NCBI GenBank assembly: GCA_016721245.1
Contig: JADKIQ010000020.1
Location: 21,694-85,693 of the forward strand
Length of the DNA stretch: 64,000 nt
Reading direction: 5' to 3'
Source of the DNA: Sphingobacteriales bacterium
GTDB lineage: Bacteria; Bacteroidota; Bacteroidia; Chitinophagales; JADIYW01
A program made the translations under genes and the position numbers. The notes below the pieces were generated by a model that saw only the letters and a list, made by a program, of their open reading frames with translations, ran no database searches and was not told the origin of the DNA. Shown one piece after another: positions 2,943-54,826 of the stretch (position 1 is its first letter; each line of letters begins with the position of its first letter).

Positions 2943-5369
2943 ATGAAAATTTCACTCAACTGGCTCAAATCTTATATTCATTTCGATTTATCGAATGAGG
3001 AACTGCATAATTTATTAACGGATATTGGTCTGGAAGTGGAAAGCATTGAACCTTACGAATCAGTAAAAGGCGGTTTGAAGGGCCTCGTAGTAGGACATGT
3101 GCTGGAAAAGGAAAAACATGCTGATGCCGATAAATTGTCTGTCTGTAAGGTAGATGTTGGAAACGAAGTATTGCAAATTGTTTGTGGAGCACCCAATGTG
3201 GCTGCCGGACAAAAAGTAGTGGTTGCCTTAGTGGGAACAAAATTGTACCCAAGCACAGGCGAAGCGTTTGAAATCAAAAAAGCGAAAATCCGTGGTGTGG
3301 AATCTGTGGGGATGATTTGTGCGGAAGACGAAATCGGACTCGGTGCTTCTCATGCAGGCATTATGGTGCTCGACGAAAACACGGAAGTTGGCTTGCAGGC
3401 TTCTTTTTTATTCGGGGTGGAAAATGACTACGTCATTGAAATCGGATTAACACCAAACCGCACCGATGCTTTTTCTCATATAGGTGTTGCCCGCGATTTA
3501 GCCGCAGCGTTAAGCTTTAGAACAAAGAAAGAAGTAGAACTTAATTTACCTAAACTCACGACTCACGACTCACGACTCACGACTGATTTTCAAGTAACAA
3601 TTGAAAATACAACCGCTTGTCCAAAATACCTCGGTATCATTTTGCAAAATATAAAAGTGACTGAATCTCCGGCATGGTTGAAAAACCGCTTGAAGGCAAT
3701 CGGACAAAAACCGATTAACAATATCGTAGATATTACCAATTTCGTGTTGCATGAATTTGGCCAACCGTTACACGCGTTCGACCTGAAAGAAATTAAAGGC
3801 AACAAGATTATTGTAAAGAACCTTCCGGCAAAAACAAAATTTACGGCATTGGATAATTCGGTGGTTGAATTGCACGAAGAAGATTTAATGATTTGCGATG
3901 GCGAAAGCAATGGCATGTGTATTGCAGGGGTATATGGTGGTGCACAATCCGGAGTGAAAGATTCTACAACGTCTATCTTTCTGGAAAGTGCTTATTTCGA
4001 TCCGAAAACTATCAGACGAACTTCTACCCGTCACGGATTGCGTACCGATGCAGCTACCCATTTCGAAAAAGGCATTGACCCGGCAGTTACACAAACTGCT
4101 TTGTTGCGTGCCGTACAACTGATTTCCGAATTGGCCGGAGGCGAAGTTGCATCCGAAATCTATGATGTTCAATCCAAAACATTCGAACCGTTTAAGGTAA
4201 CGTTGGAATACAAAAACATCAAACGATTAACCGGAGCCAATATTTCTAAAGAAGATGCCAAAAAGATTCTGGCTCTTTTAGAAATTCAGGTGGCAGTAGA
4301 AAATGAAACAACATTAGAATTGCTTGTTCCGCCTTACCGCACCGACGTTACCCGCGAAGCAGATGTGATTGAAGATATTTTGCGTATTTATGGTTTCAAC
4401 AATGTGGTTATTCCAACAAAATTGAATGCCAGCGTCAATTTCTCCAAATCCTTTGATGCGGATAAATTGTACAATAATACAGCAGATACCTTAGTGAATT
4501 TTGGTTTCTATGAAATGATGAATAACAGCATCACAAAATCAAAATACCAGTCTTTACTAAAAAATCAATCTTCTGAAAACTGGGTGCGTTTGCTGAGTTC
4601 CATCAATGTGGAATTGGATGTACTGAGAAATAATATGCTGTTTTCCGGACTGGAATCGGTTTCCCATAATATCAATCACAAGAACTCTAATGTCAAATTA
4701 TTTGAATTTGGGAAAACATATCATAAAAATGAAGAGTACACCGAGAAGAACCATTTAGCCATTTTCATTTCCGGCAACAAATCGAATACCAATTGGAACA
4801 CTCCGACGAAGAAATCTGACTTCTATTATATCAAATCCATAGTAGATGCGGTTTTATCAAAAATCGGCATTGCTGCCTTTGATGTGCTGGATAATGACCT
4901 TTCTGAAATCTTCAATTATTCACTGCTGTACAAAAAAGGAGAGAAGGTATTGGTAGAATTTGGGAAAGTACATACGCAGTTCACCAAACAGTTTGATATC
5001 AAACAAGAGGTATATTTTGCGGATTTTAACTGGGATGCTATTATTGCCACCGCTAAAAAGGTGAATATCAACTACACGGAGATTTCTAAATATCCGGCAG
5101 TAAAACGCGATTTAGCCCTGTTACTAAATAAAAAAGTGAAATTTTCTGAGGTAAAATCGATAGCGGAGAAATTTGGAAAGAAAATTTTGCGTAATATTGA
5201 GTTATTCGATATCTATGAAGATGAGAAAATCGGTCATGATAATAAATCCTATGCCGTAAGTTTTACCTTCAGAGATGACGCAAAAACACTGCAAGATAAT
5301 GATATTGATGGTGTTATGAAAAAATTAATGGAAGAATACCAATCACAGTTAAACGCTATAATTCGTTAA
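2943..5369 (+). CDS. pheT: phenylalanine--tRNA ligase beta subunit
   Basis: 808 aa with an N-terminal tRNA-binding (OB) domain (VGHVLEKEKHADADKLSVCKVDVG), B3/4 and B5 regions and a C-terminal FDX-ACB domain (YPAVKRDLALLL..SYAVSFTFR). Confidence 0.97.
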   Translation: MKISLNWLKSYIHFDLSNEELHNLLTDIGLEVESIEPYESVKGGLKGLVVGHVLEKEKHADADKLSVCKVDVGNEVLQIVCGAPNVAAGQKVVVALVGTKLYPSTGEAFEIKKAKIRGVESVGMICAEDEIGLGASHAGIMVLDENTEVGLQASFLFGVENDYVIEIGLTPNRTDAFSHIGVARDLAAALSFRTKKEVELNLPKLTTHDSRLTTDFQVTIENTTACPKYLGIILQNIKVTESPAWLKNRLKAIGQKPINNIVDITNFVLHEFGQPLHAFDLKEIKGNKIIVKNLPAKTKFTALDNSVVELHEEDLMICDGESNGMCIAGVYGGAQSGVKDSTTSIFLESAYFDPKTIRRTSTRHGLRTDAATHFEKGIDPAVTQTALLRAVQLISELAGGEVASEIYDVQSKTFEPFKVTLEYKNIKRLTGANISKEDAKKILALLEIQVAVENETTLELLVPPYRTDVTREADVIEDILRIYGFNNVVIPTKLNASVNFSKSFDADKLYNNTADTLVNFGFYEMMNNSITKSKYQSLLKNQSSENWVRLLSSINVELDVLRNNMLFSGLESVSHNINHKNSNVKLFEFGKTYHKNEEYTEKNHLAIFISGNKSNTNWNTPTKKSDFYYIKSIVDAVLSKIGIAAFDVLDNDLSEIFNYSLLYKKGEKVLVEFGKVHTQFTKQFDIKQEVYFADFNWDAIIATAKKVNINYTEISKYPAVKRDLALLLNKKVKFSEVKSIAEKFGKKILRNIELFDIYEDEKIGHDNKSYAVSFTFRDDAKTLQDNDIDGVMKKLMEEYQSQLNAIIR
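3555..3584 (+). repeat. perfect heptamer tandem array (CTCACGA)x4+CT, in-frame inside pheT (LTTHDSRLTT)
   Basis: Read directly from the sequence: ctcacga ctcacga ctcacga ctcacga ct. It starts on a codon boundary of pheT. Confidence 0.95.
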
Positions 5370-31053: not shown

Positions 31054-31797
31054 ATGGCAGAAGTTTTAGAAATACAAGAAGAGCATCACGCAGATTTATT
31101 GCCTACGCCAGATAATGGCGAAGGAGGTGAAAAAACAGCAATGAATATCAGTTATGGTAAAACCATGATGTGGTATTTCCTATTATCTGATGCATTTACA
31201 TTTTCAGCATTCCTAATTGCGTATGCATCTATAAGATTAGCACAAGCATGGTGGCCAAATCCAAATTTGGTTTTTAAATCCTTTCCGGGTTTAGGACATG
31301 CAAATGCTCCATTAGCATTCGTGAGTGTGATGACATTTATTCTGATTCTTAGCTCTGTTGCAGTTGTACGTGCCGTACAGGAAGGCCACAGAATGAATCA
31401 GAAAGGTGTTATGCTTTGGATGATTGGTGGTATTGTTGGTGGTGCTATGTTCTTAGGCTGTCAGGCTTGGGAATGGAGTCACTTAATAGCGGAAGGTTTA
31501 CGTCCTTTCTACAATCCATTCGGACCGGATGCAAATGGTATTACACATTTAGTAGAAGAACATATGGCTGTATCACCGGGACCCATCGCATTCGGCGCAT
31601 TATTCTTCGGTATTACAGGATTTCACGGATTCCACGTATTTACAGGAGTTTGTATTAATATCTGGGCATTCTTTGCTACGGCAAATGGTACTTTCCAGAG
31701 AAGAGGTCATTATGAAATGATTGAAAAGGTTGGTTTATACTGGCACTTTGTGGATTTAGTATGGGTGTTTGTATTCTTAGCATTCTATTTAATGTAA
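31054..31797 (+). CDS. ctaE: cytochrome c oxidase subunit III
   Basis: 247 aa. The pattern FFGITGFHGFHVFTGV...YWHFVDLVWVFVF is typical of subunit III. Confidence 0.85.
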   Translation: MAEVLEIQEEHHADLLPTPDNGEGGEKTAMNISYGKTMMWYFLLSDAFTFSAFLIAYASIRLAQAWWPNPNLVFKSFPGLGHANAPLAFVSVMTFILILSSVAVVRAVQEGHRMNQKGVMLWMIGGIVGGAMFLGCQAWEWSHLIAEGLRPFYNPFGPDANGITHLVEEHMAVSPGPIAFGALFFGITGFHGFHVFTGVCINIWAFFATANGTFQRRGHYEMIEKVGLYWHFVDLVWVFVFLAFYLM

Positions 31798-33817: not shown

Positions 33818-35071
33818 ATGTCTCCGTCATTTCATATCAAAAAACCGGCGCAGGATTTTATTAATGGCTCCATTCAGTTAAATGGATCTAAAAGTATCAG
33901 TAATCGTGTATTAATTATTGATGCTTTATGTAAGAATCAGATTGCTATGGAAAATTTATCCAATGCGGATGATACGGTTTTTCTTAAAAATATACTTCAG
34001 TCAAAAGATAACGTTTTAGATGCAGGAGCAGGCGGAACCACCTTCCGTTTTCTTACCGCATTTTTAGCTACACAAGAAGGAAGGGAAGTGGTGCTGACCG
34101 GCAGCGAACGCATGCAGTTGCGGCCGATAAAAATCCTGGTAGATGCCTTAGTGCAATTAGGTGCAGATATCACCTACGAAAAGAATCAGGGCTTTCCGCC
34201 ACTAAGAATCAGAGGAAGAAAATTAAAAGGCGGGAAAATAAGTTTGCCTGCTGATACTTCTTCACAATTCATTACCGCTTTGTTGTTAATCGCACCAACG
34301 CTGGAAGAAGGTCTTGAGCTTGAATTAACCGGTACTATTGTTTCTGTTCCATATATTAAGATGACGTTGAAAATGATGGAGTATTTTGGAGTTCGTACCA
34401 AATTTGAAGGAAACAATATAAGTGTAGAATCCGGCAATTATGTACCCAAACCATTTTATATAGAAGCTGACTGGAGTGCAGCATCTTACTTTTATGCGAT
34501 GGCAGTTTTAGCAGAAGCTGCATCCATAGAATTAAAAGGATTAACCAATCAGCAAATACAGGGAGACGCAGTTATTGCTTCCATTGCAAATAGTTTTGGT
34601 GTAGAAACGACGTGGAAAGAAAATGCTGTTGAAATTCGTAAAATTAGCAAACCGGATATTAGTGTATTTGATTTTGATTTCCTGGAATGCCCTGATTTGG
34701 CACAGACTGTTGTTGCGTTTTGTGCCGCCTTGAATATAGAACTGCATTGCAAAGGTTTGCAAACGTTGCGAATTAAAGAAACAGACCGAATTGCAGCATT
34801 AGATACAGAATTACAAAAATTAGGTTTAGCTTCTTTAGTGGAGTTGGATAGCAAAAACTGGCAATTAATTTCAAATAAGCTTACGACTTACAACTCACGA
34901 CTTACGACTATAAAAACATATGACGATCACCGCATGGCCATGGCGTTTGCACCCTTAGTCTTGAAATTAAATGAATTAGTTATAGAAGATGCCAATGTAG
35001 TTTCAAAATCCTATCCGTTATTTTGGAAAGACCTCGAAAAGTTGGGATTTGAAATTACAACAGCGATTTAA
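33818..35071 (+). CDS. aroA: 3-phosphoshikimate 1-carboxyvinyltransferase (EPSP synthase)
   Basis: Contains LNGSKSISNRVLII, GAGGTTFRFL, SSQFITALLLIAP and YDDHRMAMAFAPL. The start is at ATG 33818. Confidence 0.95.
   Translation: MSPSFHIKKPAQDFINGSIQLNGSKSISNRVLIIDALCKNQIAMENLSNADDTVFLKNILQSKDNVLDAGAGGTTFRFLTAFLATQEGREVVLTGSERMQLRPIKILVDALVQLGADITYEKNQGFPPLRIRGRKLKGGKISLPADTSSQFITALLLIAPTLEEGLELELTGTIVSVPYIKMTLKMMEYFGVRTKFEGNNISVESGNYVPKPFYIEADWSAASYFYAMAVLAEAASIELKGLTNQQIQGDAVIASIANSFGVETTWKENAVEIRKISKPDISVFDFDFLECPDLAQTVVAFCAALNIELHCKGLQTLRIKETDRIAALDTELQKLGLASLVELDSKNWQLISNKLTTYNSRLTTIKTYDDHRMAMAFAPLVLKLNELVIEDANVVSKSYPLFWKDLEKLGFEITTAI
34880..34909 (+). repeat. degenerate heptamer array (CTTACGA CTTACAA CTCACGA CTTACGA CT), in-frame inside aroA (LTTYNSRLTT)
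   Basis: Read directly from the sequence. It has the same 30-bp length, boundaries and reading register as the pheT copy. Confidence 0.9.
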
Positions 35072-40381: not shown

Positions 40382-40599
40382 AATAAGCTGTTTAATCTAT
40401 TGATTTTCACTGGTTGTAGTTTAAGTTTAATTATTTTTTATTTAGATTCTATATAGGGCAATTTACTTTTTTGTGTCCTGCATTTCGATTATTAGTTACC
40501 TAAATTTAATGAAGTATTTCGTTGTATAATTGAAATACTTGCTTGCTCTTTCCGTCTACAGACATATTACTCAATTCTTGTTTTTTAAATCAATTGTCT

Positions 40600-43500
40600 A
40601 TGAAGAGAAATTTACACTTTTATACTTTGTTGTTTGTGCTGTTTATTTCAACTCAGAATATAAAAGCACAGACAGCAGGTGATTATAAAACTTTTGGAGC
40701 AGGTAATTGGGCAACTGCCGCAAATTGGTCAAGATATAATGGCACAACCTGGGTGAATCCTGCACCTGCAGCCCCATCTTCTACAGATGGTGTTATTACA
40801 GTAGATCACGGCATGACCGTAAATACAACAATTACCATCGACCAGACAACCATCAGTTCATCAGGTTCTGTGGAATTGTTAACTAGCGGTGCCATTACAG
40901 TAGCAAACGGACCAGATGCCATTGATTTAAATGTATATGGTACTTATAAACGTACTGCAACTGCAACAAATTTAACCCCAACTGGAAATGTTACATTTCA
41001 ATCAGGAAGCTACTATATTCACAACGCATCAGGCGGTACCTTACCAACCTGTACATGGGATGCAGCATCCAATTTACAAATTGATGTTACTTTGGCTAAT
41101 AATGAGTTTACAGAAAGTTTTGGTAACGTAATTTTTAACGGATCTGCTGATTGTAATTTGGCAACCGGTGCTTTTACCAGAACCATACAGGGAAATCTTA
41201 CTATTTCTAGTACAGGTACTATCGGATTGTCTTCTTCAACTACAAATGCTGCGACGTTAACAATAAATGGTAATTTGATAATCAATGCAAACGGTAGTTT
41301 AATTTTAGACAGACCTACTGCAGCAAATGGCACATCACTCACTAAAAAAATTATTGTAAAAGGTAATTTTGAACAATCAACCGGTACACTCAATTTCTCA
41401 AACAACACCAGTACCACCATTAGTGCGCCACCCTCCAGAATTGCAGAAATAGATGTGGAAGGAAATTTTATACATACAGGGGGCACCATAACAGAAACTG
41501 CGTCTGATGCAGATTTTACGTCGAGGTTTAATATGACAAAAACTACCGGTACACAAAATATAGAAAGTACCGGATTCTCAAACGGAGCATCTAATATTAT
41601 CAACTTCTTAGCAGGAAATGCCAATGCTAAATCTGTAGTTGCGACTGGTAAAACATTTACTCAGGCAGCCAATACTACCTTTACGGTTTCTGCCGGCACT
41701 TCAACACCGGATTTAGATATAGACGGAACATTAATAAACCAAGGCACTACGTCCTGGACAGTTAATGGAACTTGGGCTGTGAATAATAACGGAACGTATG
41801 TACATAATACATTAGCAGGTATTTCTACTCCTCTAAATTCTGCAACTCTTAATACCGGCAGTAACTTTATTTACAGAGGCTCATCTACTTTAAATACACC
41901 TGTTTCGTCCAGTGGCAGAACTTATTATAATCTTGCTTATGAAAGCACTTCCGGAACATATGCTCCTACATTTAGTGCAGGTTCAAGTGCATTAACCGTT
42001 AATGGAACACTTCGTGTAGGTGATGGCTCTGCTAATGCAACGAATTTAAGTCAGGGTGCATTTACAGGCACTTTAAATTTCAACGGTGATATTAACATCA
42101 CGCAAAGTTCAACATTAAGCTGTAATTCTTTTACACTTGCAGCTGATAAAATTTTAACCTTATCTAATGCTTCGGCAAACAGTCTTTCTGCAGCATCAGC
42201 CAGTCAAACATTTACACTTAATGGTATAACCAAAGAAGTAAATACAAATGGATTTTCGGGTGCTTCAACAAGAGCCATTAGTAATACTAATTCACCAACA
42301 ATTACATTAGGCAGTGCGGCAACAGTAGAATTTAACGGAACTTCCAATCAGCCAACTTCAGGATTACCTTCAACAGTTCCAAATGTTACAATAAATAATA
42401 ATGCGGGTGTAACACTATCTGCTGGTTTAGATGTATCAACATCATTAGCACTTACTGCAGGGTTATTTACTATTGGAGCAAACAATCTTACCTTTGGTAC
42501 ATCCGCCACAATAAGTGGTACGCCATCTTCCACAAAAATGGTAGTGGCCACCAGCACCGGTGAATTCAGAAAAAATTATGCAGGCACCGGCTCCTTTTTA
42601 TTTCCGGTAGGAGATAACACCGGAACAGCTGAATATAGTCCGGTTACTTTAAATTTTACTGCTGGAACTTTTTCTGCTGCGTATGCAGGTGTACGAGTGG
42701 ATAATTCTAAACATACCAATAATTCCAGCATTACTGATTTTTTAAACAGATTCTGGACGGTTACCACGAGTGGTATCACTTCACCCACCTGTGATGTTAC
42801 ATTAGTGTATGCAGATGGTGATGTGAATGGAACAGAATCCAATATTTTTGGCGGTGTTAAAAACGGAAGTGTCTGGGTTTGCATGGATGGCGTTGCCGTT
42901 TCAACAAACACCATTAATAAATCAATCACCAACTTTTATGATGGAGTTTTTACAGGCGGTGATGCAACAGTTATGGTTTGTACGGTTTGTATCAATCCAA
43001 CAAATGGTGGCAGTATTGGTAACGCACAATCCTATACTTGTGGCAGTTTTGATCCTGCTGCAATTACAAATACAGCAGCTCCGACCGGGCATACAGGTAC
43101 TTTGGAATATCAATGGCAATTATCCACAACAAGTAATTCAAGTGGATTTAGTGATATTAGTGGTGCTATTTCTGATACGTATGATCCGGCTTCCATTTCA
43201 CAAACCACTTGGTATAAACGATTGTCGAGAGTGGATTGTAAATCAAACTGGACAGGAGCTGCAGAATCCAATGTAGTTGAAATGACAGTGTCCTGTGTCA
43301 ATCCGACAAGTGGTGGTACGATTGGAAATGCACAGTCAAATTGCGGTTCATTTAACCCTACCACAATTACAAATACTGCAGATGCAAGCGGTACATCCTG
43401 TACCATAGAATATCAATGGCAGTCTTCCACAACCAGTAATGCTTCTGGATTTAGCGATATCAGTGGTGCAACTTCATCAACATATGATCCTTCAACCATA

Positions 43501-46500
43501 ACTCAAACTACCTGGTTCAAAAGAATAGCACGCTCAATATGCAGATTAGATTGGGTTGGTGTAGTTGAATCTAATGTAATTGAAATGACTATAGATGTTG
43601 CACCATCTATAACAACTCAGCCAGGCAGTCCGGCAGCAGTTTGTGCTGGTACAGGAAATCGAACATTTACGGTAGCAGCAATAGGAAGTGGTACGTTAAC
43701 TTATCAATGGCAGGAATTTATTTCAGGATGGAATGATGTAACGAATGGCGGAGTTTATTCAGGGGCAACAACTGTTACTTTAACCATCACCAATCCAACA
43801 GCAGGAATGAATGGTAACAGATACCGTTGTGTAGTTTCAGGTACTTGTTCTCCTATAGCAACATCTGATGGAAATGCTACACTTACAGTGAACGATGTTC
43901 CTTTGAAAGCAGTTATTCCATTTCCCGGTGATGGTTCAATAAATATTGTTTTAGATCCGGATTTAAACTGGACAGACGGCGGTAATGCTGCAACGTATGA
44001 TGTATATTTTGGCACCTCATCACCAGGTTCGTTTATTGGAAATCAGGCATCAGCAAGTTACACACCTGCAACCTTAAGCAACTCAACATTATATTACTGG
44101 CGAATAAATTCAGTTAATTCCTGTGGAACTACAACAGGAGATATCTGGTCATTCACAACAGAGCCGGTTACGTTTAATCCGGGTTTTGAAAACAATGTTG
44201 GGACAGCCAATGGTTGGATAAAAGATGCTTCCGGAAATATTGCAGTCACCATCGGAACAGCACCTTCAACAGCTGCCGTTCGTACAGGAAACAGACGATT
44301 GAATGTAACCGTAACAACCACGAACGAACGTTATGTTCAACATGTTGGATATCCTGTTGTTATTCCAGGAAGCGGTACAAATTATATTCATGCTATCGGA
44401 TATATCCGTTCAGCAGATAATGCTGATTTAGGCAGAGTTTCAGCTATATCTACTGATGGTGGAACTGCTGTAAATGGTTCTTTAAGTGCAACAACTTCTG
44501 GTTCATGGGTGAGATTCACGGCAAGTGGTACCGCTACAAACGGAAGAACCTATATACCAAGAATTGGTGTGGATGGTGATAATGATGCGGGTGGAGATAC
44601 TTACGGATTTGAAGATGTAATCATTTATACAACAACACTTTCATCCGGAGTGGATGTAACTGCACCAAATGTAGCCACAGGCTTATGTATTAATTCAGTT
44701 GGAAATAATAATGTTATAACCTGGACGGATGGAACAGACAATGCCACACAAACCAGTGGTATTAATGGTGTGATGATTTTACGTGCACCTGCCGGAACGT
44801 CATTGCCTACTCTGAATAATCAGGGTTATTATTCCACAGATTCAAAAATTGGCCCGAATACAATTAACGGCTGGACGGTTTTATCAAATAATATTGCACC
44901 CGGTACTCAAACTTACACAGATAATAATTCGGCGGGTACACCATTTATTTATGCTGTGTATATGCGTGACAAAGCATATAATTATTCCGCAGCAGCCAGT
45001 TTTACAACAGCAAATGGCGGTTCAGATCAAACACTGGCTTGTGGTGCAACAACAGCGACTATGGCAGGAACAGCAGCTCCGGGCGGTTATACTGGAACAT
45101 GGACTTTGGTTAGTGGATCAGGAACAATTACATCTCCAAATTCTGCAACAACAACAATCACCGGTATCACATCTAATTCTATATTTAAGTGGTCAGTAAC
45201 GAATGGTTCAGGCTGTTCAACTTTTGATTATGTAAATGTATATTCCTCTATTTTGCCTGATGGATATCCGTTGGATGATACAGTATATAATGAAACAGGT
45301 ACTGCATCTTTTGGTACGTCACCAACATTTACTGCTGGCGTTACCTATCAATGGGTAGTTTATAATGGTACCACCTGGTCTGATGTTGTCAATGGTGGTG
45401 TGTATTCAGGAGCAACAGATACTGTTCTTATTATAAATAACCCTCCGTTCAGTATGAACGGGTATAAGTATTTTTGTAAACTTATGAGGAGTCCGTGCGA
45501 CCTTACTCAAACATTACAGGCAACTTTATCGGTGTTGCCATTGACAATATTTTCTAATACAACTACAAAAGCATGTGGTACAGATTTTGGCAGTAGTTTC
45601 GGTACATTTACAAGAAATATAACAGTATCGGGATTACCAACACCATTAAACAATACAGGAGGCAAATATGTATTGCAGCAAATTGATATAAAATTAGGAA
45701 GCTCGTCTTGTAAGAAGAATCTAAGCACGTATGATTTTAGATTAACAGCTCCGGATGGTACTAATATAGACTTTATCACAGACTTAACTACTACCTCAAC
45801 AAATGTTTGGGCTGATTTGCATTTCAGAGATCAGCCATCATTAGAGAAGATAAGGGAATATAGTAATACTGTACAAGGTTCTTATTATCCATACGGTATT
45901 GGTTATTATGCTGTAGATGGTGATAATAGTTTTCAAAGCACATTCAATGGGAAAAGCCCGAATGGAACCTGGGTGTTATCCATTAAAGAGAGTGTAAGCA
46001 CAGGCAATGAGATTTCTTTTGAAGGTGTAAAATTATACTTTGGACCTGCATTTGTAAATAATGTTGTAACAACTGTGGATGCAAATAATGATTGTGTTTC
46101 CGCAACTTGTTTGGACACTAAAAGTAAGATAGTGGGCACAAATAATTACTATCCTCAAAGTGACCCTAATTACCCTGGAAACACAGTTAGCGGCGCCTGT
46201 GACTGGAATGCAGCAAACAATAACAGTACCTGGTTTTATTTTATAGCAAGTGCTACAACAGCCTATATTTCTGTAAGCGGTAACACAAATCAAACGGCTG
46301 GTTCAGATGACACACAGCCAATTGTACTTAGCCAGACAGGTGATTGCACGGGTAGTTTTAGTGTGCCAACCGGAGGATGCCCAAATGACGAAACAAGAAA
46401 TAATACCGCATATCTCTCAGCTAATGGCGGAGGGATTACTACTTCGGGAAATATATATGTTAATGGTATAGCTGCAAATACTGAGTTTAATCTATCTGGA

Positions 46501-47136
46501 CTAACAGTTGGACAAAAATATTATTTGTTAGTGGATGGGAATGGAGGTATTTCATCCACATTCTATTTGGAAGGTTTAAATGGTTGTGCTGTTTGTAATA
46601 CATTACTGCCAATAGAATTACTGTATTTTAAAACGACCTGCGAGAATAACGGTGAATTAATTTACTGGGCCACGGCATCGGAACTGAACAATGATTATTT
46701 TGATATAGAAGTCAGTACAGATTCCAGAAACTGGGAAAAAATAGCAACCATAAACGGTTCGGGTAACAGTAATAATGTAAAAGAGTATTCCTGGAAAAAT
46801 AATAAACCAATTTCAGGTATTAAATATTACAGAATTAAACAAGTAGATTTTAATGGAAAATACACCTATTCGTATATCATATCTTCAACCTGTCATTTTG
46901 AAGATGACAGCAATTTTTTAGTTTACGTAAACCAGAATAATGAAGAAGTTATAATATACGGAAATAATGGTGCTGAAGAAGATTATACTTTGTTTGATAA
47001 CTTAGGCAGAGTAATAATCAAAGGGTTTATTCACGATAAAATATCAAATATTAATATTCAGCAATTACAAAAAGGTGTTTATATACTTAAGCTCGGAAAT
47101 GAATCAATCAAAACATTTAAAATTGTGAAACAATAA
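40600..47136 (+). CDS. giant secreted T9SS cargo protein (type A Por C-terminal sorting domain), adhesin-like
   Basis: Signal peptide from ATG 40600 (MKRNLHFYTLLFVLFISTQNIKAQ). Contains a T/N/S/G-rich beta-helix-like region, repeated ~100-aa YQWQ modules, Ig-like modules, an Fn3-like module and a proprotein-convertase P-domain-like segment (..FRLTAPDGTNIDFITDL..NGTWVLSIKES). The terminal ~70 aa fit the Por secretion tail (..KGVYILKLGNESIKTFKIVKQ). Confidence 0.85.
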   Translation: MKRNLHFYTLLFVLFISTQNIKAQTAGDYKTFGAGNWATAANWSRYNGTTWVNPAPAAPSSTDGVITVDHGMTVNTTITIDQTTISSSGSVELLTSGAITVANGPDAIDLNVYGTYKRTATATNLTPTGNVTFQSGSYYIHNASGGTLPTCTWDAASNLQIDVTLANNEFTESFGNVIFNGSADCNLATGAFTRTIQGNLTISSTGTIGLSSSTTNAATLTINGNLIINANGSLILDRPTAANGTSLTKKIIVKGNFEQSTGTLNFSNNTSTTISAPPSRIAEIDVEGNFIHTGGTITETASDADFTSRFNMTKTTGTQNIESTGFSNGASNIINFLAGNANAKSVVATGKTFTQAANTTFTVSAGTSTPDLDIDGTLINQGTTSWTVNGTWAVNNNGTYVHNTLAGISTPLNSATLNTGSNFIYRGSSTLNTPVSSSGRTYYNLAYESTSGTYAPTFSAGSSALTVNGTLRVGDGSANATNLSQGAFTGTLNFNGDINITQSSTLSCNSFTLAADKILTLSNASANSLSAASASQTFTLNGITKEVNTNGFSGASTRAISNTNSPTITLGSAATVEFNGTSNQPTSGLPSTVPNVTINNNAGVTLSAGLDVSTSLALTAGLFTIGANNLTFGTSATISGTPSSTKMVVATSTGEFRKNYAGTGSFLFPVGDNTGTAEYSPVTLNFTAGTFSAAYAGVRVDNSKHTNNSSITDFLNRFWTVTTSGITSPTCDVTLVYADGDVNGTESNIFGGVKNGSVWVCMDGVAVSTNTINKSITNFYDGVFTGGDATVMVCTVCINPTNGGSIGNAQSYTCGSFDPAAITNTAAPTGHTGTLEYQWQLSTTSNSSGFSDISGAISDTYDPASISQTTWYKRLSRVDCKSNWTGAAESNVVEMTVSCVNPTSGGTIGNAQSNCGSFNPTTITNTADASGTSCTIEYQWQSSTTSNASGFSDISGATSSTYDPSTITQTTWFKRIARSICRLDWVGVVESNVIEMTIDVAPSITTQPGSPAAVCAGTGNRTFTVAAIGSGTLTYQWQEFISGWNDVTNGGVYSGATTVTLTITNPTAGMNGNRYRCVVSGTCSPIATSDGNATLTVNDVPLKAVIPFPGDGSINIVLDPDLNWTDGGNAATYDVYFGTSSPGSFIGNQASASYTPATLSNSTLYYWRINSVNSCGTTTGDIWSFTTEPVTFNPGFENNVGTANGWIKDASGNIAVTIGTAPSTAAVRTGNRRLNVTVTTTNERYVQHVGYPVVIPGSGTNYIHAIGYIRSADNADLGRVSAISTDGGTAVNGSLSATTSGSWVRFTASGTATNGRTYIPRIGVDGDNDAGGDTYGFEDVIIYTTTLSSGVDVTAPNVATGLCINSVGNNNVITWTDGTDNATQTSGINGVMILRAPAGTSLPTLNNQGYYSTDSKIGPNTINGWTVLSNNIAPGTQTYTDNNSAGTPFIYAVYMRDKAYNYSAAASFTTANGGSDQTLACGATTATMAGTAAPGGYTGTWTLVSGSGTITSPNSATTTITGITSNSIFKWSVTNGSGCSTFDYVNVYSSILPDGYPLDDTVYNETGTASFGTSPTFTAGVTYQWVVYNGTTWSDVVNGGVYSGATDTVLIINNPPFSMNGYKYFCKLMRSPCDLTQTLQATLSVLPLTIFSNTTTKACGTDFGSSFGTFTRNITVSGLPTPLNNTGGKYVLQQIDIKLGSSSCKKNLSTYDFRLTAPDGTNIDFITDLTTTSTNVWADLHFRDQPSLEKIREYSNTVQGSYYPYGIGYYAVDGDNSFQSTFNGKSPNGTWVLSIKESVSTGNEISFEGVKLYFGPAFVNNVVTTVDANNDCVSATCLDTKSKIVGTNNYYPQSDPNYPGNTVSGACDWNAANNNSTWFYFIASATTAYISVSGNTNQTAGSDDTQPIVLSQTGDCTGSFSVPTGGCPNDETRNNTAYLSANGGGITTSGNIYVNGIAANTEFNLSGLTVGQKYYLLVDGNGGISSTFYLEGLNGCAVCNTLLPIELLYFKTTCENNGELIYWATASELNNDYFDIEVSTDSRNWEKIATINGSGNSNNVKEYSWKNNKPISGIKYYRIKQVDFNGKYTYSYIISSTCHFEDDSNFLVYVNQNNEEVIIYGNNGAEEDYTLFDNLGRVIIKGFIHDKISNINIQQLQKGVYILKLGNESIKTFKIVKQ

Positions 47137-47448: not shown

Positions 47449-50400
47449 ATGGCTTCAATGTTATATCATTTTAAAAAAATAATATTTGTATTTCTATTTA
47501 TTAATGTTACAGGTGTTTACTCGCAAATTGTAATCAATGAAGTAAACCATAGACCTACAGATGCAGCACCATGTCCAACAAACCCTACTACTGGAGCACC
47601 TACTTGTCAGGGTTTAGTAGGTACAGGCAGAGAGTTTGTTGAATTATATAATCCAACTTGTAATGCTTTTGATTTAAGTGGTTTTATTATTGCATCTAGA
47701 AGTGATGTAGTTGGTAATGATTACGGAGGAGCATTCAGATTTCCTGCAGGTGCATCAATTCCACCTAACGGGATTGTATCATTTGGTTCTGGCGATGCCG
47801 GTGCACCAGCAGTAACTTATGGATATAATGCTGCTCCCGCCGGAGATAAAAGAGTTGGACCCAAAGGATGGTTATTGCCAAATACAGAAGGTTGGGTTGC
47901 GTTATACAGACCCAATGGGACTTGCTACCAATTAGTATATTATGCAAGTTCTGGAGAAGGTACTGCCTGTATTACAAACGGAAGCTCAGAGTTCTTGCAG
48001 AATCCACTTGTACCAACAAATAGTGGTGCAATAACATTATTAAGTGCAAATGCAGTATTCACGAGTACACCAGCTGTTTGCCAATATATTGGTCCATATG
48101 CCAGTCCAAATTTATCAATGGCAAGAGTGCCTGATGGTGGAACCTGGCAAACAAACAGGGCAGCTACACCAACTGCATGTAATAGTACTTGTAATGTTAT
48201 TTCAACCATAAATTTTACGGCCTCTGTATCTCAACCAACTTGCGGAAATAATAATGGAAGTATTACTCTAAATGTTACATCAGCAGGCGCAGCAACATTT
48301 AGCTGGTCTCCTAATCCATCACCAACAAATACAACATCATCAACAACAGCTAATAATCTTTCAGCTACTAGCTATACAATAAGTGTCACTCAATCTGGTT
48401 GCACTAAAGATACAATCATTACATTAACTGCAACAGGTAAACCAAATGCAGGATCTGATCAAACGGGTGCCTGTGGTGGAACATCAGCTACATTAACGGG
48501 AACAGCACCAACTACCGGAACATGGTCGGCACAGTCAAGTAACCCAACCGGAGCTACGTTAGGTTCTACAGTTGGTGGCATTGCGTCGGTAGCATTTACT
48601 GCGAATGCAAGCGGAGTATATAACTTCATTTATTCATCGAGCGGATGTACAGATACTATGAATATTACTGTTAATCCTAAACCAAATGCAGGATCTGATC
48701 AAACGAATGTCTGTGCAGGAACTTCTGCAACCTTAACCGGAACAAATCCAACAACTGGTACATGGACTGCACAAACCGGAAATCCTGCCGGAGCTACTTT
48801 AGGTTCTACAGCTGGTGGCATTGCTGCGGTAGTATATGCAACAAGTTCAAGTGGAGTTTACAATTTTATTTATACCGCTAATGGATGTTCCGATACAATG
48901 AATATTACAGTAACTGCCAAACCGAATGCAGGCATTGATCAAACGGTCAATTGTTTTATCACAGGCACAGCTACGATGGCCGGCAGTGGAACTGGAACCT
49001 GGTCTTTTGCTACGGGAAATGCCGGTACAGCAACAATTACAACACTTAATAGCGCCACCACAACGGTTACAAATTTTAGTACATCCGGAACCTATAATTT
49101 AGTATGGACAAACAATGGCTGTAGTGATACAGCACGAATCACCGTAAATAATAGTTGTGCATGTCCGATAACGAATAATAATTTAACAGCACCGGTATCA
49201 CCCAACTGTGCACCATACAATGGAACAACGATAAATGGAAGTACGGCAACACCTGCAGGCGGAACCTACACGTGGCAATACAGCAATGGCGGCGGATTTG
49301 CCAATGCAAGTGGAACGAATAATACCGAAGATTATACAACAGGAGTATTGCCATCAAACACCCATCAATTCAGAAGAATATATACCACCACCAGTGGTAT
49401 CATTTGTTCTGATACGAGCAATGTGGTAACAATAGTGGTAAACGCCAAACCGAATGCAGGCATAGATCAAACGGTCAATTGTTTTATTACAGGCACAGCA
49501 ACGATGGCGGGCAGCGGAGCAGGTAGCTGGTCATTTGCTACGGGAAATGCCGGTACAGCAACAATTACAACACTTAATAGTGCCACCACAACAGTTACAA
49601 ATTTTAGTACATCCGGAACCTATAATTTAGTATGGACAAACAATGGGTGTAGTGATACAGCACGAATCACCGTAAATAATAGTTGTGCATGTCCGATAAC
49701 GAATAATAATTTAACAGCACCGGTATCGCCCAATTGTGCACCATACAATGGAACAACGATAAATGGAAGTACGGCAACACCTGCAGGCGGAACCTACACA
49801 TGGCAATACAGCAATGGCGGCGGATTTGCCAATGCAAGTGGAACGAATAATACAGAAGATTATACAACAGGTGTATTGCCATCAAACACCCATCAATTCA
49901 GAAGAATATACACCACAACCAGTGGAATCATTTGTTCTGATACGAGCAATGTGGTAACAATACTGGTAAACGCCAAACCGAATGCAGGCATTGATCAAAC
50001 GGTCAATTGTTTTATCACAGGCACAGCAACGATGGCCGGCAGTGGAACAGGAACCTGGTCTTTTGCTACAGGAAATGCTGGTACAGCAAGTATTACATCA
50101 ATAAATAGTCCGACAACAACAGTTACAAATTTTAGTACATCCGGAACCTATAATTTAGTATGGACAAACAATGGCTGCAGTGATACAGCACGAATCACCG
50201 TAAATAATAGTTGTGCTTGCCCGATAACGAATAATAATTTAACAGCACCGGTATCGCCCAACTGTGCACCATACAATGGCACTACCATAAATGGAAGTGC
50301 GGCAACACCTGCAGGCGGAACCTACACGTGGCAATACAGCAATGGCGGAGGATTTGCAAATGCAAGTGGAACGAACAATACCGAAGATTATACAACAGGT

Positions 50401-53400
50401 GTATTGCCATCAAACACCCATCAATTCAGAAGAATATATACCACCACCAGTGGAATCATTTGTTCTGATACGAGCAATGTGGTAACAATACTGGTAAACG
50501 CCAAACCCAATGCAGGCATTGATCAAACGGTCAATTGTTTTATCACAGGCACAGCAACGATGGCGGGCAGCGGAACTGGAACCTGGTCTTTTGCTACAGG
50601 AAATGCAGGTACAGCAACTATTACATCAACCAATAGCGCAACAACAACGGTTACCAATTTTAGTGCATCCGGAACCTATAATTTAGTATGGACAAACAAT
50701 GGCTGTAGTGATACAGCACGAATCACAGTAAATAATAGTTGTGCTTGCCCGATAACGAATAATAATTTAACAGCACCGGTATCGCCCAATTGTGCACCCT
50801 ACAATGGAACAACGATAAATGGAAGTGCGGCAACGCCAGCAGGAGGAACCTACACATGGCAATACAGCAATGGCGGCGGATTTGCCAATGCAAGTGGAAC
50901 GAACAATACAGAAGATTATGCAACAGGTGTATTGCCATCAAACACCCATCAATTCAGAAGAATATATACCACAACCAGTGGGATTATTTGTTCTGATACG
51001 AGCAATGTGGTAACGATAGTGGTAAACGCCAAACCCAATGCAGGCATTGATCAAACGGTCAATTGTTTTATTACAGGCACAGCAACGATGGCGGGCAGCG
51101 GAGCAGGTAGCTGGTCATTTGCTACGGGAAATGCCGGTACAGCAACAATTACAACACTTAATAGCGCCACCACAACGGTTACAAATTTTAGTACATCCGG
51201 AACCTATAATTTAGTATGGACAAACAATGGCTGTAGTGATACAGCACGAATCACCGTAAATAATAGTTGTGCTTGCCCGATAACGAATAATAATTTAACA
51301 GCACCGGTATCACCCAACTGTGCACCATACAATGGAACAACGATAAATGGAAGTACGGCAACACCTGCAGGCGGAACCTACACATGGCAATACAGCAATG
51401 GCGGCGGATTTGCCAATGCAAGTGGAACGAACAATACCGAAGATTATACAACAGGAGTATTGCCATCAAACACCCATCAATTCAGAAGAATATACACCAC
51501 AACCAGTGGGATTATTTGTTCTGATACGAGCAATGTGGTAACGATAGTGGTAAACGCCAAACCCAATGCAGGCATTGATCAAACGGTCAATTGTTTTATT
51601 ACAGGCACAGCAACGATGGCCGGCAGTGGAACTGGAACATGGTCTTTTGCTACAGGAAATGCAGGTACAGCAAGTATTACATCAATAAATAGTCCGACAA
51701 CAACAGTTACCAATTTTAGTGCATCCGGAACCTATAATTTAGTATGGACAAACAATGGCTGTAGTGATACAGCACGAATCACAGTAAATAATAGTTGTGC
51801 TTGCCCGATAACGAATAATAATTTAACAGCACCGGTATCGCCCAATTGTGCACCCTACAATGGAACAACGATAAATGGAAGTGCGGCAACGCCAGCAGGA
51901 GGAACCTACACATGGCAATACAGCAATGGCGGCGGATTTGCCAATGCAAGTGGAACGAACAATACAGAAGATTATGCAACAGGTGTATTGCCATCAAACA
52001 CCCATCAATTCAGAAGAATATATACCACCACCAGTGGAATCATTTGTTCTGATACAAGTAATGTGGTAACGATAGTGGTAAACGCCAAACCGAATGCTAA
52101 TGCAGGTTTAAATAAAGTATTAACATGTACCAATCCGACTGTTACTTTGGATGGTTCAAGCACAACAACCGGTGTTAGTTATTCCTGGACAGGTCCTGGA
52201 ATTGTAAGTGGTGGAAGTATTGCTACTCCTGTTGTAAATGCATCAGGAACTTATACATTGACCGTAACCGTAAATTCAACAAATTGTCAGCAAACAGATA
52301 ATGTTGATGTGACAAGCAACGGCGCATTACCAAATGCAGATGCAGGTTTAAATAAAGTGATAACGTGTACAAATCCAACCGTTATTTTAGACGGTTCAAG
52401 TACAACATCGGGTGTGAGTTATGCATGGACAGGTCCGGGAGTCGTTAGTGGAGGTGCTACTGCAAAACCAACTGTAAATGCTGCAGGTGCATATACATTA
52501 ACAGTAACAATTACAGCAACTGGTTGTCAGCAAACCGATGTTGTTAATGTAACCAATAACACCACATTACCCAATGCAAATGCAGGCTCAGATAAAATAT
52601 TAACATGTATTTTAACAGATGTGCTATTAGATGGAAGCAGTACAACATCGGGTGTGAGTTATGCATGGACAGGCCCCGGAATTGTGAGCGGAGGTGCTAC
52701 AGCAACACCCGATGTAAATAAATCAGGAATATATACATTGACTGTAACGAATCCTGTTTCCGGATGTAAAAATACAGATCAGGTAGAGGTATTTAATAAC
52801 GGAACATTACCAAATGCTGATGCAGGTTTAGATAAGGAGCTAACATGTACAAAAACCTCAGTAATATTAGATGGTAGCAGTACAACAACAGGTGTTACAT
52901 ATACCTGGATTGGGCCGGGCATCCTAAGTGGCGCAAGTTCTGCTACTCCGACAGTAAATACCACAGGAACCTACACCGTAACAGTTACAGAAACAGCCAC
53001 AGGTTGTAAAAAAACAGATCAGGTATTAGTTACGAAAAATACTGCATTACCAAACATAAATGCTGGAAATCCTAAAGAATTAACATGTACAGCTACTACT
53101 GTTTTATTAAATGGCTCATCATCCACAATCAGTGCAAACCCGAGTTGGGCAGGCCCAGGAATTATTAATGGTCAGTCTACTTTTACACCAACAATAAATA
53201 CCAGTGGTACATATACATTAACAATGACCGATACCATAAACGGGTGTGTTGCATCTGCTTCAGTTTTAGTTACTACGGATACTTTGCCACCGGTCTTAAC
53301 AATTATCTCTAGTAAGAATCCGGCAGAATATAATGAAATTATTAACCTGACATTAAACAGTAATGCTACTATTTCTGCTGTTCAGTGGCAGCCTGCAGCT

Positions 53401-53805
53401 TTGGTAAGTGATTCTTTAGCAACGCAAGTAAGCGCACAAATAAGCAGCCCGACAACATTTATCGTGAACGCTACTGATAGCAAAGGATGTTCAGGTACGA
53501 CTTCTTTATTTGTGAATCTCTTTAATGTAGATTGCATATATGTTCCAAATACATTTACACCTGATGCAAACGGAAAAAATGAAGTATTCAAACCCTTAGG
53601 CTCAAAATTAAAAACAATAAGCATATTCAGGATTTTTGACAGGTGGGGGAATATGGTTTTTGAAACAACAGATGTTAGTCAGGGGTGGGATGGTACCTAT
53701 AAAGGGAAATTATTAGAACCCGGTGTATATGTATATTACATAGAAGGAACTTGTATTACCAATAACAAAGAAATTATAAAAGGTGATGTTACGCTTATTC
53801 GTTAA
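47449..53805 (+). CDS. giant T9SS cargo protein with N-terminal lamin-tail domain, tandem repeats and a type B (gliding-motility-associated, CHU_C-like) C-terminal domain
   Basis: Has a signal peptide and LTD motifs (VINEVNHRP...GREFVELYNPT). Two diverged ~80-aa modules are followed by six near-identical 176-aa units and then ~81-aa modules (LTCTNPTV.LDGSSTT.GVSY.WTGPG). The C-terminus is CIYVPNTFTPDANGKNEVFKPLG..FRIFDRWGNMVFET..GWDGTYKGK..PGVYVYYIEG. Confidence 0.9.
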   Translation: MASMLYHFKKIIFVFLFINVTGVYSQIVINEVNHRPTDAAPCPTNPTTGAPTCQGLVGTGREFVELYNPTCNAFDLSGFIIASRSDVVGNDYGGAFRFPAGASIPPNGIVSFGSGDAGAPAVTYGYNAAPAGDKRVGPKGWLLPNTEGWVALYRPNGTCYQLVYYASSGEGTACITNGSSEFLQNPLVPTNSGAITLLSANAVFTSTPAVCQYIGPYASPNLSMARVPDGGTWQTNRAATPTACNSTCNVISTINFTASVSQPTCGNNNGSITLNVTSAGAATFSWSPNPSPTNTTSSTTANNLSATSYTISVTQSGCTKDTIITLTATGKPNAGSDQTGACGGTSATLTGTAPTTGTWSAQSSNPTGATLGSTVGGIASVAFTANASGVYNFIYSSSGCTDTMNITVNPKPNAGSDQTNVCAGTSATLTGTNPTTGTWTAQTGNPAGATLGSTAGGIAAVVYATSSSGVYNFIYTANGCSDTMNITVTAKPNAGIDQTVNCFITGTATMAGSGTGTWSFATGNAGTATITTLNSATTTVTNFSTSGTYNLVWTNNGCSDTARITVNNSCACPITNNNLTAPVSPNCAPYNGTTINGSTATPAGGTYTWQYSNGGGFANASGTNNTEDYTTGVLPSNTHQFRRIYTTTSGIICSDTSNVVTIVVNAKPNAGIDQTVNCFITGTATMAGSGAGSWSFATGNAGTATITTLNSATTTVTNFSTSGTYNLVWTNNGCSDTARITVNNSCACPITNNNLTAPVSPNCAPYNGTTINGSTATPAGGTYTWQYSNGGGFANASGTNNTEDYTTGVLPSNTHQFRRIYTTTSGIICSDTSNVVTILVNAKPNAGIDQTVNCFITGTATMAGSGTGTWSFATGNAGTASITSINSPTTTVTNFSTSGTYNLVWTNNGCSDTARITVNNSCACPITNNNLTAPVSPNCAPYNGTTINGSAATPAGGTYTWQYSNGGGFANASGTNNTEDYTTGVLPSNTHQFRRIYTTTSGIICSDTSNVVTILVNAKPNAGIDQTVNCFITGTATMAGSGTGTWSFATGNAGTATITSTNSATTTVTNFSASGTYNLVWTNNGCSDTARITVNNSCACPITNNNLTAPVSPNCAPYNGTTINGSAATPAGGTYTWQYSNGGGFANASGTNNTEDYATGVLPSNTHQFRRIYTTTSGIICSDTSNVVTIVVNAKPNAGIDQTVNCFITGTATMAGSGAGSWSFATGNAGTATITTLNSATTTVTNFSTSGTYNLVWTNNGCSDTARITVNNSCACPITNNNLTAPVSPNCAPYNGTTINGSTATPAGGTYTWQYSNGGGFANASGTNNTEDYTTGVLPSNTHQFRRIYTTTSGIICSDTSNVVTIVVNAKPNAGIDQTVNCFITGTATMAGSGTGTWSFATGNAGTASITSINSPTTTVTNFSASGTYNLVWTNNGCSDTARITVNNSCACPITNNNLTAPVSPNCAPYNGTTINGSAATPAGGTYTWQYSNGGGFANASGTNNTEDYATGVLPSNTHQFRRIYTTTSGIICSDTSNVVTIVVNAKPNANAGLNKVLTCTNPTVTLDGSSTTTGVSYSWTGPGIVSGGSIATPVVNASGTYTLTVTVNSTNCQQTDNVDVTSNGALPNADAGLNKVITCTNPTVILDGSSTTSGVSYAWTGPGVVSGGATAKPTVNAAGAYTLTVTITATGCQQTDVVNVTNNTTLPNANAGSDKILTCILTDVLLDGSSTTSGVSYAWTGPGIVSGGATATPDVNKSGIYTLTVTNPVSGCKNTDQVEVFNNGTLPNADAGLDKELTCTKTSVILDGSSTTTGVTYTWIGPGILSGASSATPTVNTTGTYTVTVTETATGCKKTDQVLVTKNTALPNINAGNPKELTCTATTVLLNGSSSTISANPSWAGPGIINGQSTFTPTINTSGTYTLTMTDTINGCVASASVLVTTDTLPPVLTIISSKNPAEYNEIINLTLNSNATISAVQWQPAALVSDSLATQVSAQISSPTTFIVNATDSKGCSGTTSLFVNLFNVDCIYVPNTFTPDANGKNEVFKPLGSKLKTISIFRIFDRWGNMVFETTDVSQGWDGTYKGKLLEPGVYVYYIEGTCITNNKEIIKGDVTLIR
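48916..52097 (+). repeat. six tandem copies of a 528-bp (176-aa) coding unit, above 95 percent identical, mosaic
   Basis: The anchor GCCAAACC(G/C)AATGC recurs at 48916, 49444, 49972, 50500, 51028, 51556 and 52084, spaced exactly 528 bp apart. Shadow ORFs in the track recur with the same period. Confidence 0.95.
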
Positions 53806-54826
53806 AATAATTTGTAGTTTGGTTTTTATCCAGACAATACAAGCACAGGAAGTTCATTTCTCTGCCATTCGTCAAATTCCGTATTTCTTTAACCCGGCAT
53901 ATACTGGATTTATAGAACAGGATGTTCGTGCCGGTTTAATCTATAGAAATCAGTCACCCACTTATTCCAAAGCATTCAATACCCTTGGATATGGAGCAGA
54001 TTTTTCTGTGTTAAAGCAAAAAACAAATAATAATTCCATTATAGGTGTGGGAATCAACGGCTATTATGACAGATCAGGATCACTGAATTTTACAGATAAT
54101 TCTTTCACAGCAAATTTCAGTTATATCCAGGCATTAGATAAGCGTCAGCGATTTTATTTATCTTTTGGAATTCAGGCAGGATATGCACTCAGAAAAATTG
54201 ATATTTCCAAAGCAACTTTTGAAGATGGTTTTAATGGTAATGATGGTTTTACACCAACAGCAGGTTCTGATTTAGTTCCGGTATTGTCAAGAAATAATCA
54301 TGTAAAATTAGGGGCAGGATTTATAGCATTTTTTAATATCAGCAAAAATATAAATTTTCACATTGGAGCTGCCGGATATGATTTAGCAGTACAAAATTTA
54401 TCTTTTAATGAAAATAGTACCGTAAAACAAAAACCAAGAATTATTGCCAATTTCGGTCTGGAAGCAAAAATTAAACAAGTATCTATTTTGCCCTATTTTT
54501 TAATGCAGATGAAAATGCCGGAAAAGGAAATTGTTTTCGGCTCTATGGTGAAATACAGTTCCGATAATAATCAATTTAATTTTAATGAAAATAACTACAG
54601 TATAGGCGGCGGCGTAGGTTACAGATATTTAGATGCATTGATTTTATCAGCACAGGCAGGGTATAAAAATTTTACACTGAATTTTTCTTACGATGTGAAT
54701 ATTTCAAAGCTGTCAAAAGCAACCAGAACCGTTGGAGCACTGGAAGTCTCTTTAATCTATCAAAACTCATTCATAAAATCAAAAAAGAAAGGAAAAGCCC
54801 TGGCTTGTCCAAAAATGTCTTTCTAA
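53786..54826 (+). CDS. PorP/SprF-family type IX secretion outer-membrane protein
   Basis: Signal peptide, then the QEVHFSAIRQIPYFFNPAYTGF start typical of PorP/SprF, with beta-barrel-like alternating sequence. It overlaps the 3' end of the type B CTD gene, which is the canonical pairing. Confidence 0.85.
   Translation: MLRLFVKIICSLVFIQTIQAQEVHFSAIRQIPYFFNPAYTGFIEQDVRAGLIYRNQSPTYSKAFNTLGYGADFSVLKQKTNNNSIIGVGINGYYDRSGSLNFTDNSFTANFSYIQALDKRQRFYLSFGIQAGYALRKIDISKATFEDGFNGNDGFTPTAGSDLVPVLSRNNHVKLGAGFIAFFNISKNINFHIGAAGYDLAVQNLSFNENSTVKQKPRIIANFGLEAKIKQVSILPYFLMQMKMPEKEIVFGSMVKYSSDNNQFNFNENNYSIGGGVGYRYLDALILSAQAGYKNFTLNFSYDVNISKLSKATRTVGALEVSLIYQNSFIKSKKKGKALACPKMSF

Follow-up and report, generated by a model that had tools for sequence, protein, structure and literature searches.

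The stretch of DNA analysed here, which we call the window, is 64 kb (64,000 nucleotides) from a Chitinophagales metagenome-assembled genome (MAG) lineage. It carries three short tandem arrays of a heptanucleotide unit, CTYAYRA, at three loci. Each array sits inside an open reading frame (ORF). The arrays and the ORFs concerned are the following.

3555-3584, forward strand: array 1, a perfect (CTCACGA)4CT, in frame in pheT and encoding LTTHDSRLTT (PheT residues 205-214)
2943-5369, forward strand: pheT, host of array 1, phenylalanine-tRNA ligase beta subunit, 808 aa, with five PheT Pfam domains
34880-34909, forward strand: array 2, CTTACGA CTTACAA CTCACGA CTTACGA CT, in frame in aroA and encoding LTTYNSRLTT (residues 355-364)
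33818-35071, forward strand: aroA, host of array 2, EPSP synthase, 417 aa from the ATG
56249-56278, forward strand: array 3, CTCACGA CTCATGA CTCACGA CTCACAA CT, encoding LTTHDSRLTT in an ORF downstream of dnaX
56114-56740, forward strand: the ORF hosting array 3, 208 aa, no Pfam match, presumed C-terminal part of tau
54903-56042, forward strand: the dnaX zero-frame ORF, 379 aa, with clamp-loader domains I-III

The three arrays share the form (CTYAYRA)4CT, are 30 bp long, and lie on the forward strand, sense to their hosts and in one register. Each opens at a codon boundary, and the predicted host ORFs run in frame through all of them. A first-pass annotation of the window had described four perfect CTCACGA units plus CT in pheT, codon-aligned and read as LTTHDSRLTT, and this is what lies at 3555-3584. 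It had also placed identical copies in aroA and dnaX. Length, sense orientation and register hold for these copies but identity does not, as arrays 2 and 3 differ from the perfect (CTCACGA)4CT by four and two substitutions, respectively. Furthermore, the third copy is not inside the dnaX frame but in the separate ORF at 56114-56740. The arrays are nevertheless kin copies of one heptamer and not a product of chance. A two-unit 14-mer has eight overlapping matches in the window, all on the forward strand, versus 0.05 expected by chance. TRF reports period 7 with 4.3-4.4 copies at all three sites, and autocorrelation over periods 4-13 recovers these three, all at lag 7, as the sole tandem arrays of at least four units in the 64 kb.

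The array codons are disfavoured synonyms: CTC makes up 4% of Leu codons, CGA 8% of Arg and ACG 16% of Thr. Together with the 7-nt periodicity, this use of rare codons points to an origin at the DNA level rather than the protein level, and we therefore read the encoded peptide as what may be a tolerated by-product. The opposite view is that LTTHDSRLTT is a functional short linear motif common to three proteins, and the presence of the same or a near-identical decapeptide in all three would fit it. However, the period is 7 nt and not 7 codons, the rarest synonymous codons are used, close relatives carry unrelated peptides at the position (LKSQISNLKS, TAYSILPTSKV, QQSTVNSRQST), and both sites that were modelled are coil of locally low confidence. 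We regard selection for the peptide as extremely improbable. As RNA, the arrays are unstructured, with minimum free energies of 0 to -3.5 kcal/mol and z scores of +1.3 to +1.8 relative to shuffled sequence, that is, less folded than the shuffles. An Rfam search of the whole window gave no match.

We used orthologues of the two essential host proteins as an exact length ruler. In PheT, the spacing from TPNR to CP[KR]Y is 56-57 aa in nearly all of ~120 orthologues, down to 51% identity, and Flavobacteriia PheT has a segment of the same length with no periodic sequence there. AroA gives a similar picture, with 46-49 aa between KETDR and Y.DHR in almost every one of ~120 orthologues at identities as low as 57%. 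Structure alignments of both proteins against the Protein Data Bank (PDB) likewise showed no clean 10-aa gap at the array sites. Since the array segment is as long as the loop in array-free orthologues, the arrays are not fresh insertions; the repeat occupies host sequence rather than adding to it. The insertion model was rejected for pheT and aroA because no 10-aa indel appears in the PDB alignments or among the ~120 orthologues of each. The AlphaFold model of PheT places the array in a coil between a helix (179-194) and a strand (217-220), and the model of AroA places it in a coil past the strand at 347-352. Model confidence in AroA is lowest (69; mean pLDDT 92.6) in the block 351-360, which takes in the first six residues of the array. 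The earlier suggestion that tolerant protein loops host the arrays thus agrees with both modelled sites, which are predicted coil of locally low confidence.

Array length at these sites is not fixed in the wider clade. Relatives carry arrays of 30, 33, 39 or 42 nt at the same sites, and the AroA of P0235 has a period-7 expansion of ~20 aa, so the fixed 30-bp size proposed at first does not extend beyond the window. Slippage occurs where it is tolerated, as in P0235 AroA. No copy-number polymorphism was seen among the 27 AroA or the 21 tau-ORF members of 90% clusters, and close PheT relatives have identical anchor spacing with no change in copy number, which argues against the hypermutability that had been proposed.

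These results bear directly on the proposal of the first-pass annotation, a mobile 30-bp element that inserts in frame into tolerant loops in the manner of the Rickettsia palindromic elements. Three copies of identical size, ends and register within 64 kb, and one unit shared by unrelated genes, are what such an element would leave. But there is no length gain relative to array-free orthologues, which contradicts insertion for pheT and aroA, and orthologues down to 51-57% identity have a homologous, equal-length, non-periodic segment, the very finding that the annotation had set against its own idea. Same-site arrays range from 30 to 42 nt and beyond, and they are without a palindrome, target-site duplication or conserved flanks. 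Being non-palindromic and folding less than shuffled sequence, they do not resemble Rickettsia palindromic elements. The arrays at these sites are also older than the species, and the shared register of three copies would arise by chance about once in nine. Finally, a Pfam scan of 30 window ORFs found no reverse transcriptase, transposase or XisH/XisI domain. A mobile element of this kind is very unlikely.

To date the arrays, we compared periodic peptides across orthologues. The 65 PheT orthologues with less than 60% local identity have no period-7 peptide at the site; of the 40 with 72% or more, 23 have one. For AroA, the boundary is at 68% identity: none of the 42 orthologues under it has such a peptide at the site, compared with 13 of the 80 over it. 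LTTH[DN]S[RQ]LTT-type peptides are found at the AroA position in lineages 73-93% identical (P0166, P0167, P0184). Period-7 peptides at the two sites are thus restricted to one Chitinophagales clade, and the arrays there appear to predate the diversification of a clade spanning ~70-100% protein identity. A metagenome scan for PheT relatives added one close relative (L129), the remainder being 47-60% homologues. A search with (LTTHDSR)n peptides gave 41 matches, 42-79 aa long and almost all without annotation or labelled "hypothetical protein"; this search cannot detect 10-aa copies.

Within the clade, the unit itself has turned over at a fixed site. At the PheT site, the following sequences were observed.

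window: CCT AAA (CTCACGA)4 CT GAT
L211 (80% amino acid identity): CCA AAT (CTCAAAT)4 CG GAT
L209: (CAAATCT)5+
L216: (AAATCTG)6
L217 and L210: half-homogeneous or decayed
L218: weakly periodic, CTGCCTA-type

The PheT arrays of the window and L211 have the same first codon, phase and length, and unit positions 5-7 differ in every unit. In L209, the array has spread over the former DF codons by eight substitutions with length unchanged. The AroA site behaves similarly: the window has (CTYACGA)n, or C[TYA]CGA units, and L214 has (AGTCRAC)5, or C[AGT]CGA, in the same phase, while the AroA site of L212 holds a B-like (MAAATCT)4 array. Arrays that are uniform within themselves and divergent between lineages show concerted evolution, and because array length stays constant, the homogenising process would have to be length-neutral. 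Any mechanism must explain such length-neutral copying, as the unit changes in concert at a fixed site.

Taken together, we think the arrays are probably heptanucleotide microsatellites of old age, read in frame, which evolve in concert under a length constraint within hypervariable linkers and are shuffled by homologous recombination. In one Chitinophagales clade, surface linkers that are hypervariable in PheT, in EPSP synthase and in the tau portion of DnaX would host a family of simple sequence repeats (SSRs) resembling the STRR and TAACTGA repeats of other bacteria. A change of one or two units would shift the frame, and a change of three would add or remove 7 residues, so purifying selection on reading frame and loop length would purge the usual products of slippage. 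What would remain is length-neutral homogenisation, either out-of-register slipped-strand repair or gene conversion, copying one unit over its neighbours and the adjoining flank. Homologous recombination would then shuffle the linker haplotypes among strains and species. The seeding of CTCACGA into three unrelated loops presumably took place in the clade ancestor.

A different way to reach the same end states is template-directed rewriting, in which a trans-acting enzyme overwrites loop DNA with heptamers and keeps its length. The heptamer would be written into pre-existing, unrelated loops with no need for flanking homology, and the candidate writers are a repair polymerase or a reverse transcriptase that copies a short repeat template. 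If this were true, one process would also have generated the 5'-leader arrays of Bacteroidota, Cyanobacteria and other phyla. Several observations fit: arrays replace equal-length sequence at all tested sites, three genes share one unit, a small set of unit types recurs at two sites, and in L209 the period crosses former flank codons. However, unit types do not co-vary across a genome in the cases where the two loci could be linked. GCA_029572485.1 has a decayed C-type array at the PheT site and a B-like array at the AroA site, and on contig k141_874053 of ERZ27258449 a perfect pheT array is linked to a decayed aroA array, so within-genome co-variation of unit type is not supported in these linked cases. 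In addition, no candidate enzyme is present among the 30 window ORFs scanned. We give rewriting by such an enzyme a low probability, and the same holds for the broader proposition that heptamers are written into unrelated loops from a template.

Differences between strains are concentrated in short patches. Over 7.2 kb, the window shares 99.4% identity with L121, and yet 18 of their 23 differences in aroA fall within 43 nt around array 2.

34876-34918, forward strand: aroA patch, 43 nt with 18 of the 23 aroA differences from L121, of equal length in both alleles

At this patch, L121 reads CTTAATACTCAAGGTACCCAACTCACGCCT (LNTQGTQLTP). The pheT genes of P0070 (A-type) and P0081 (B-type) are 95.4% identical with 115 differences, 48 of which are packed into ~120 nt. 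The identical sequence on either side of this segment runs to at least 80 nt and at least 300 nt. The three PheT loop classes (A, KLTTHDSRLTT; B, NLKSQISNLKS; C, TAYSILPTSKV) are interleaved in a loop-masked tree of PheT, and sequence flanking the array varies along with loop class, DFQVTIEN for example going with class A. Flanks that co-vary with array type are what recombining alleles would give and speak against template-directed rewriting. The simplest reading of the patches, judged from sequence comparison, would be short-patch homologous recombination of divergent linker haplotypes. We also observed a second cluster of differences from L121 at 31473-31557, with ten substitutions at mostly multiple-of-three spacing, like a short homologous-recombination patch. 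The target of a diversity-generating retroelement was considered and rejected: no reverse transcriptase domain was found in the 30 window ORFs scanned, and the substitutions in the aroA and P0070/P0081 patches involve all four bases and are not adenine-specific.

A number of points weigh against the microsatellite reading we favor. Length-neutral homogenisation is inferred from end states, without an observed intermediate. Independent evolution in place fails to explain one unit in three unrelated genes, and a dispersal step must be added to it. A B-like unit occurs at both the PheT and the AroA sites, in different lineages, which hints at inter-locus exchange or a limited unit repertoire. The polarity of the aroA patch is ambiguous, as the nearer outgroup L125 has no array and the 93% and 91% relatives P0166 and P0167 have one. 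Between strains ~5% apart, the pheT and tau arrays match at 30 of 30 positions, and such perfect conservation could mean functional constraint. Lastly, the analysis covered 64 kb of the source genome.

We then considered heptamer arrays in other genomes. A degenerate-pattern scan with one genome per species returned at least 120 loci holding 131 arrays. Among the loci listed, most are from Bacteroidota, and Nostocales, Chloroflexota, Acidobacteriota, Candidate Phyla Radiation (CPR) and others are also represented. Fourteen of the 131 arrays listed lie within long ORFs, and all 14 are sense. The expectation of the first-pass annotation, that antisense copies carry stops in every frame and would be kept out of genes, is consistent with the absence of antisense arrays among these 14 listed matches. 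In-frame copies also occur in ORFs of other phyla that by eye resemble conserved genes, such as one like UvrC in a Doudnabacteria MAG and one like aconitase in an Omnitrophota genome. In viral contigs, the target pattern gave 40 matches, versus 119 and 31 for composition-matched control heptamer patterns, which also counts against rewriting. Because control heptamers are comparably frequent in viral contigs, the spread across phyla is not evidence for one mobile family; it reflects generic A/C/T-rich heptamer SSRs.

Upstream of genes, we observed a (CTTAYTA)4 array in L212 (3788-3818; GCA_029572485.1) 10 nt before the aroA start codon, and the window has a weak two-unit remnant upstream of aroA at the matching position.

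Arrays near start codons raise the possibility of a functional cis-element, in which arrays are mRNA or DNA binding or loading sites whose periodicity is under selection even in coding sequence. Ribosomal protein S1, a cold-shock-type protein or Rho, acting on unstructured C/A-rich RNA, would be candidate partners. Among the arrays listed, 52 are followed by the start of a gene on the same strand, with the ATG within 50 nt in 35 cases; where the context is co-directional, the listed arrays comprise 39 sense and 20 antisense. The array ahead of one relative's aroA, the low structure of array RNA relative to shuffles, and the identity of the pheT and tau arrays between strains all agree with a role of this kind, and a translational role has been proposed for the TAACTGA repeats (MacGregor 2015, PMC4679880). 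On the other hand, sister lineages have decayed arrays or wholly other units at the same essential-gene sites, and one genome pairs a perfect pheT array with a decayed aroA array. There is no obvious part for a leader-type signal to play midway through pheT or aroA, and the flanks of the conserved pheT and tau arrays are equally invariant between those strains, so conservation is not a property of the array in particular. We consider a cis-element unlikely, and retain the recombining, length-constrained microsatellite as the probable account.

The arrangement around array 3 deserves separate description. The dnaX ORF stops just past an A10 run at 56029-56038, and the ORF that carries array 3 would be continuous with dnaX if this run gained one A or were read with a -1 shift. 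An independent MAG, L096, is 95% identical and has the same A10 run, the same dnaX/ORF arrangement and the same array 3. We also note that full-length members account for 4 of the 15 listed in the dnaX cluster, all of 379 aa. If the gene is read as it stands, the zero frame would give a short product of gamma size, and tau would require slippage. In E. coli dnaX, the arrangement of zero-frame and slippage products is the reverse.

The AroA loop of P0172 and P0173, at the site of array 2, has another sequence that is 7 aa longer, PQPLKGSDVKESPLGDLGV; it resembles a translated GC-rich small repeat element and not a heptamer array. PheT has a second hypervariable site after residue 596 (window position ~4728), with insertions of 1-29 aa in relatives (P0059-P0063, P0070, P0071, P0077, P0079, P0081). 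One 19-aa insert there, DSIPSPIGEGNVELARQRM, is common to five lineages, with a related 20-aa version in a sixth, P0062. Other inserts at this site are S/N/T-rich and partly periodic, such as DALNASAKPSNNTLNVSTNPSSDSLHASQ.

Next to pheT, on the reverse strand (2180-2851), is a gene that encodes 223 aa, including a Peptidase_S74 (endosialidase chaperone) domain. The gene also lies beside pheT in L210 and L128 and is not at that position in L209 or L215-L218, and is thus a variable gene. Between aroA and dnaX are two giant ORFs. The first (40543-47136, 2197 aa) has no Pfam match. In the second (47449-53805, 2118 aa), TRF reports 240-bp tandem repeats at 48438-48945 and 52089-52895; this ORF also has a CHU_C type IX secretion signal, and a PorP/SprF gene (53783-54826) comes after it. 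With the CHU_C signal followed by the PorP/SprF gene, 47449-54826 is a typical Bacteroidota type IX secretion system (T9SS) cargo locus.

To our knowledge, the origin and dispersal of heptanucleotide repeats are still without explanation 30 years after the description of the STRR repeats. The pheT, aroA and dnaX linkers, available in every genome of the clade, can serve as markers for the birth, homogenisation, decay and recombination of such repeats. Loops of this kind also look like lineage-specific inserts of 10 residues and can lead annotation or alignment astray.

The STRR heptamers of heterocystous cyanobacteria have the units CCCCAGT, TTGGTCA and CAACAGT; they are for the most part intergenic and also occur inside the rnpB gene. 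The analogy drawn with them at first holds, in that the window has tandem 7-nt units dispersed over three loci in 64 kb. Like STRR, these are heptanucleotide arrays dispersed in a genome and able to sit within functional genes, and the AroA array (AGTCRAC)5 of L214 rotates to CGACAGT, close to CAACAGT. Unlike STRR, they belong to another phylum, with a Chitinophagales host, and have another unit, and the arrays are ~4 units long, in frame and of constant length. Copy-number variation between strains by slippage, which characterizes STRR-type repeats and SSRs, was not found among the AroA and tau-ORF cluster members or the close PheT relatives, and the sole expansion is in the distant AroA lineage P0235.

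Rickettsia palindromic elements are palindromic insertions of ~100-150 bp that lengthen the host protein. The window arrays are similar in being in-frame repeats within conserved ORFs at structurally tolerant positions, but they are 30 bp, non-palindromic and unstructured, and the host is not lengthened.

A further known case is the NeuO poly-psi repeat of E. coli K1 prophage CUS-3, (5'-AAGACTC-3')n, which has 3-53 units and varies between isolates (PMC13001214). It too is a coding heptanucleotide repeat, translated into a cyclic peptide of 7 residues if the number of units preserves the frame, and its unit rotates to CTCAAGA, one base off CTCACGA. However, NeuO is a phase-variable contingency locus, whereas the window arrays have ~4 units, lie in housekeeping genes and show no copy-number polymorphism. 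No out-of-frame or length variants that would indicate NeuO-type on/off switching are present among the listed members of the AroA and tau-ORF clusters.

The TAACTGA heptamer direct repeats are known from Beggiatoaceae, Cyanobacteria and some Bacteroidetes (MacGregor 2015, PMC4679880). Heptamer direct repeats were described there in five Bacteroidetes genomes and are mostly intergenic, so the first-pass view that such repeats are undescribed in Bacteroidota holds only in part. Both systems have tandem 7-nt units at many loci that are strongly strand-specific relative to genes, both are present in Bacteroidetes, a minority are read through inside ORFs, and the wider CTYAYRA set, among the arrays listed, lies mostly within 50 nt upstream of start codons. 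The units differ, with the best rotation of CTCACGA, CGACTCA, matching TAACTGA at four of seven bases. CTCACGA is stop-free in all sense frames, so the coding direction is "forward", while TAACTGA is translatable only in reverse. The three window arrays are also internal to ORFs rather than intergenic and upstream of start codons, and they are mid-gene in conserved essential genes rather than at the protein periphery. Length neutrality and unit turnover at fixed sites are not described for the TAACTGA repeats.

Among long SSRs, heptanucleotides form the commonest class in many genomes, with polymerase slippage the proposed driver, and SSR units in coding regions are mainly multiples of three (Mrazek et al. 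2007, as cited in PMC4679880). Judged by the rule as it is cited there, an in-frame heptamer array in essential genes is an exception. The arrays of the window are an unusual, but not unprecedented, kind of bacterial microsatellite.

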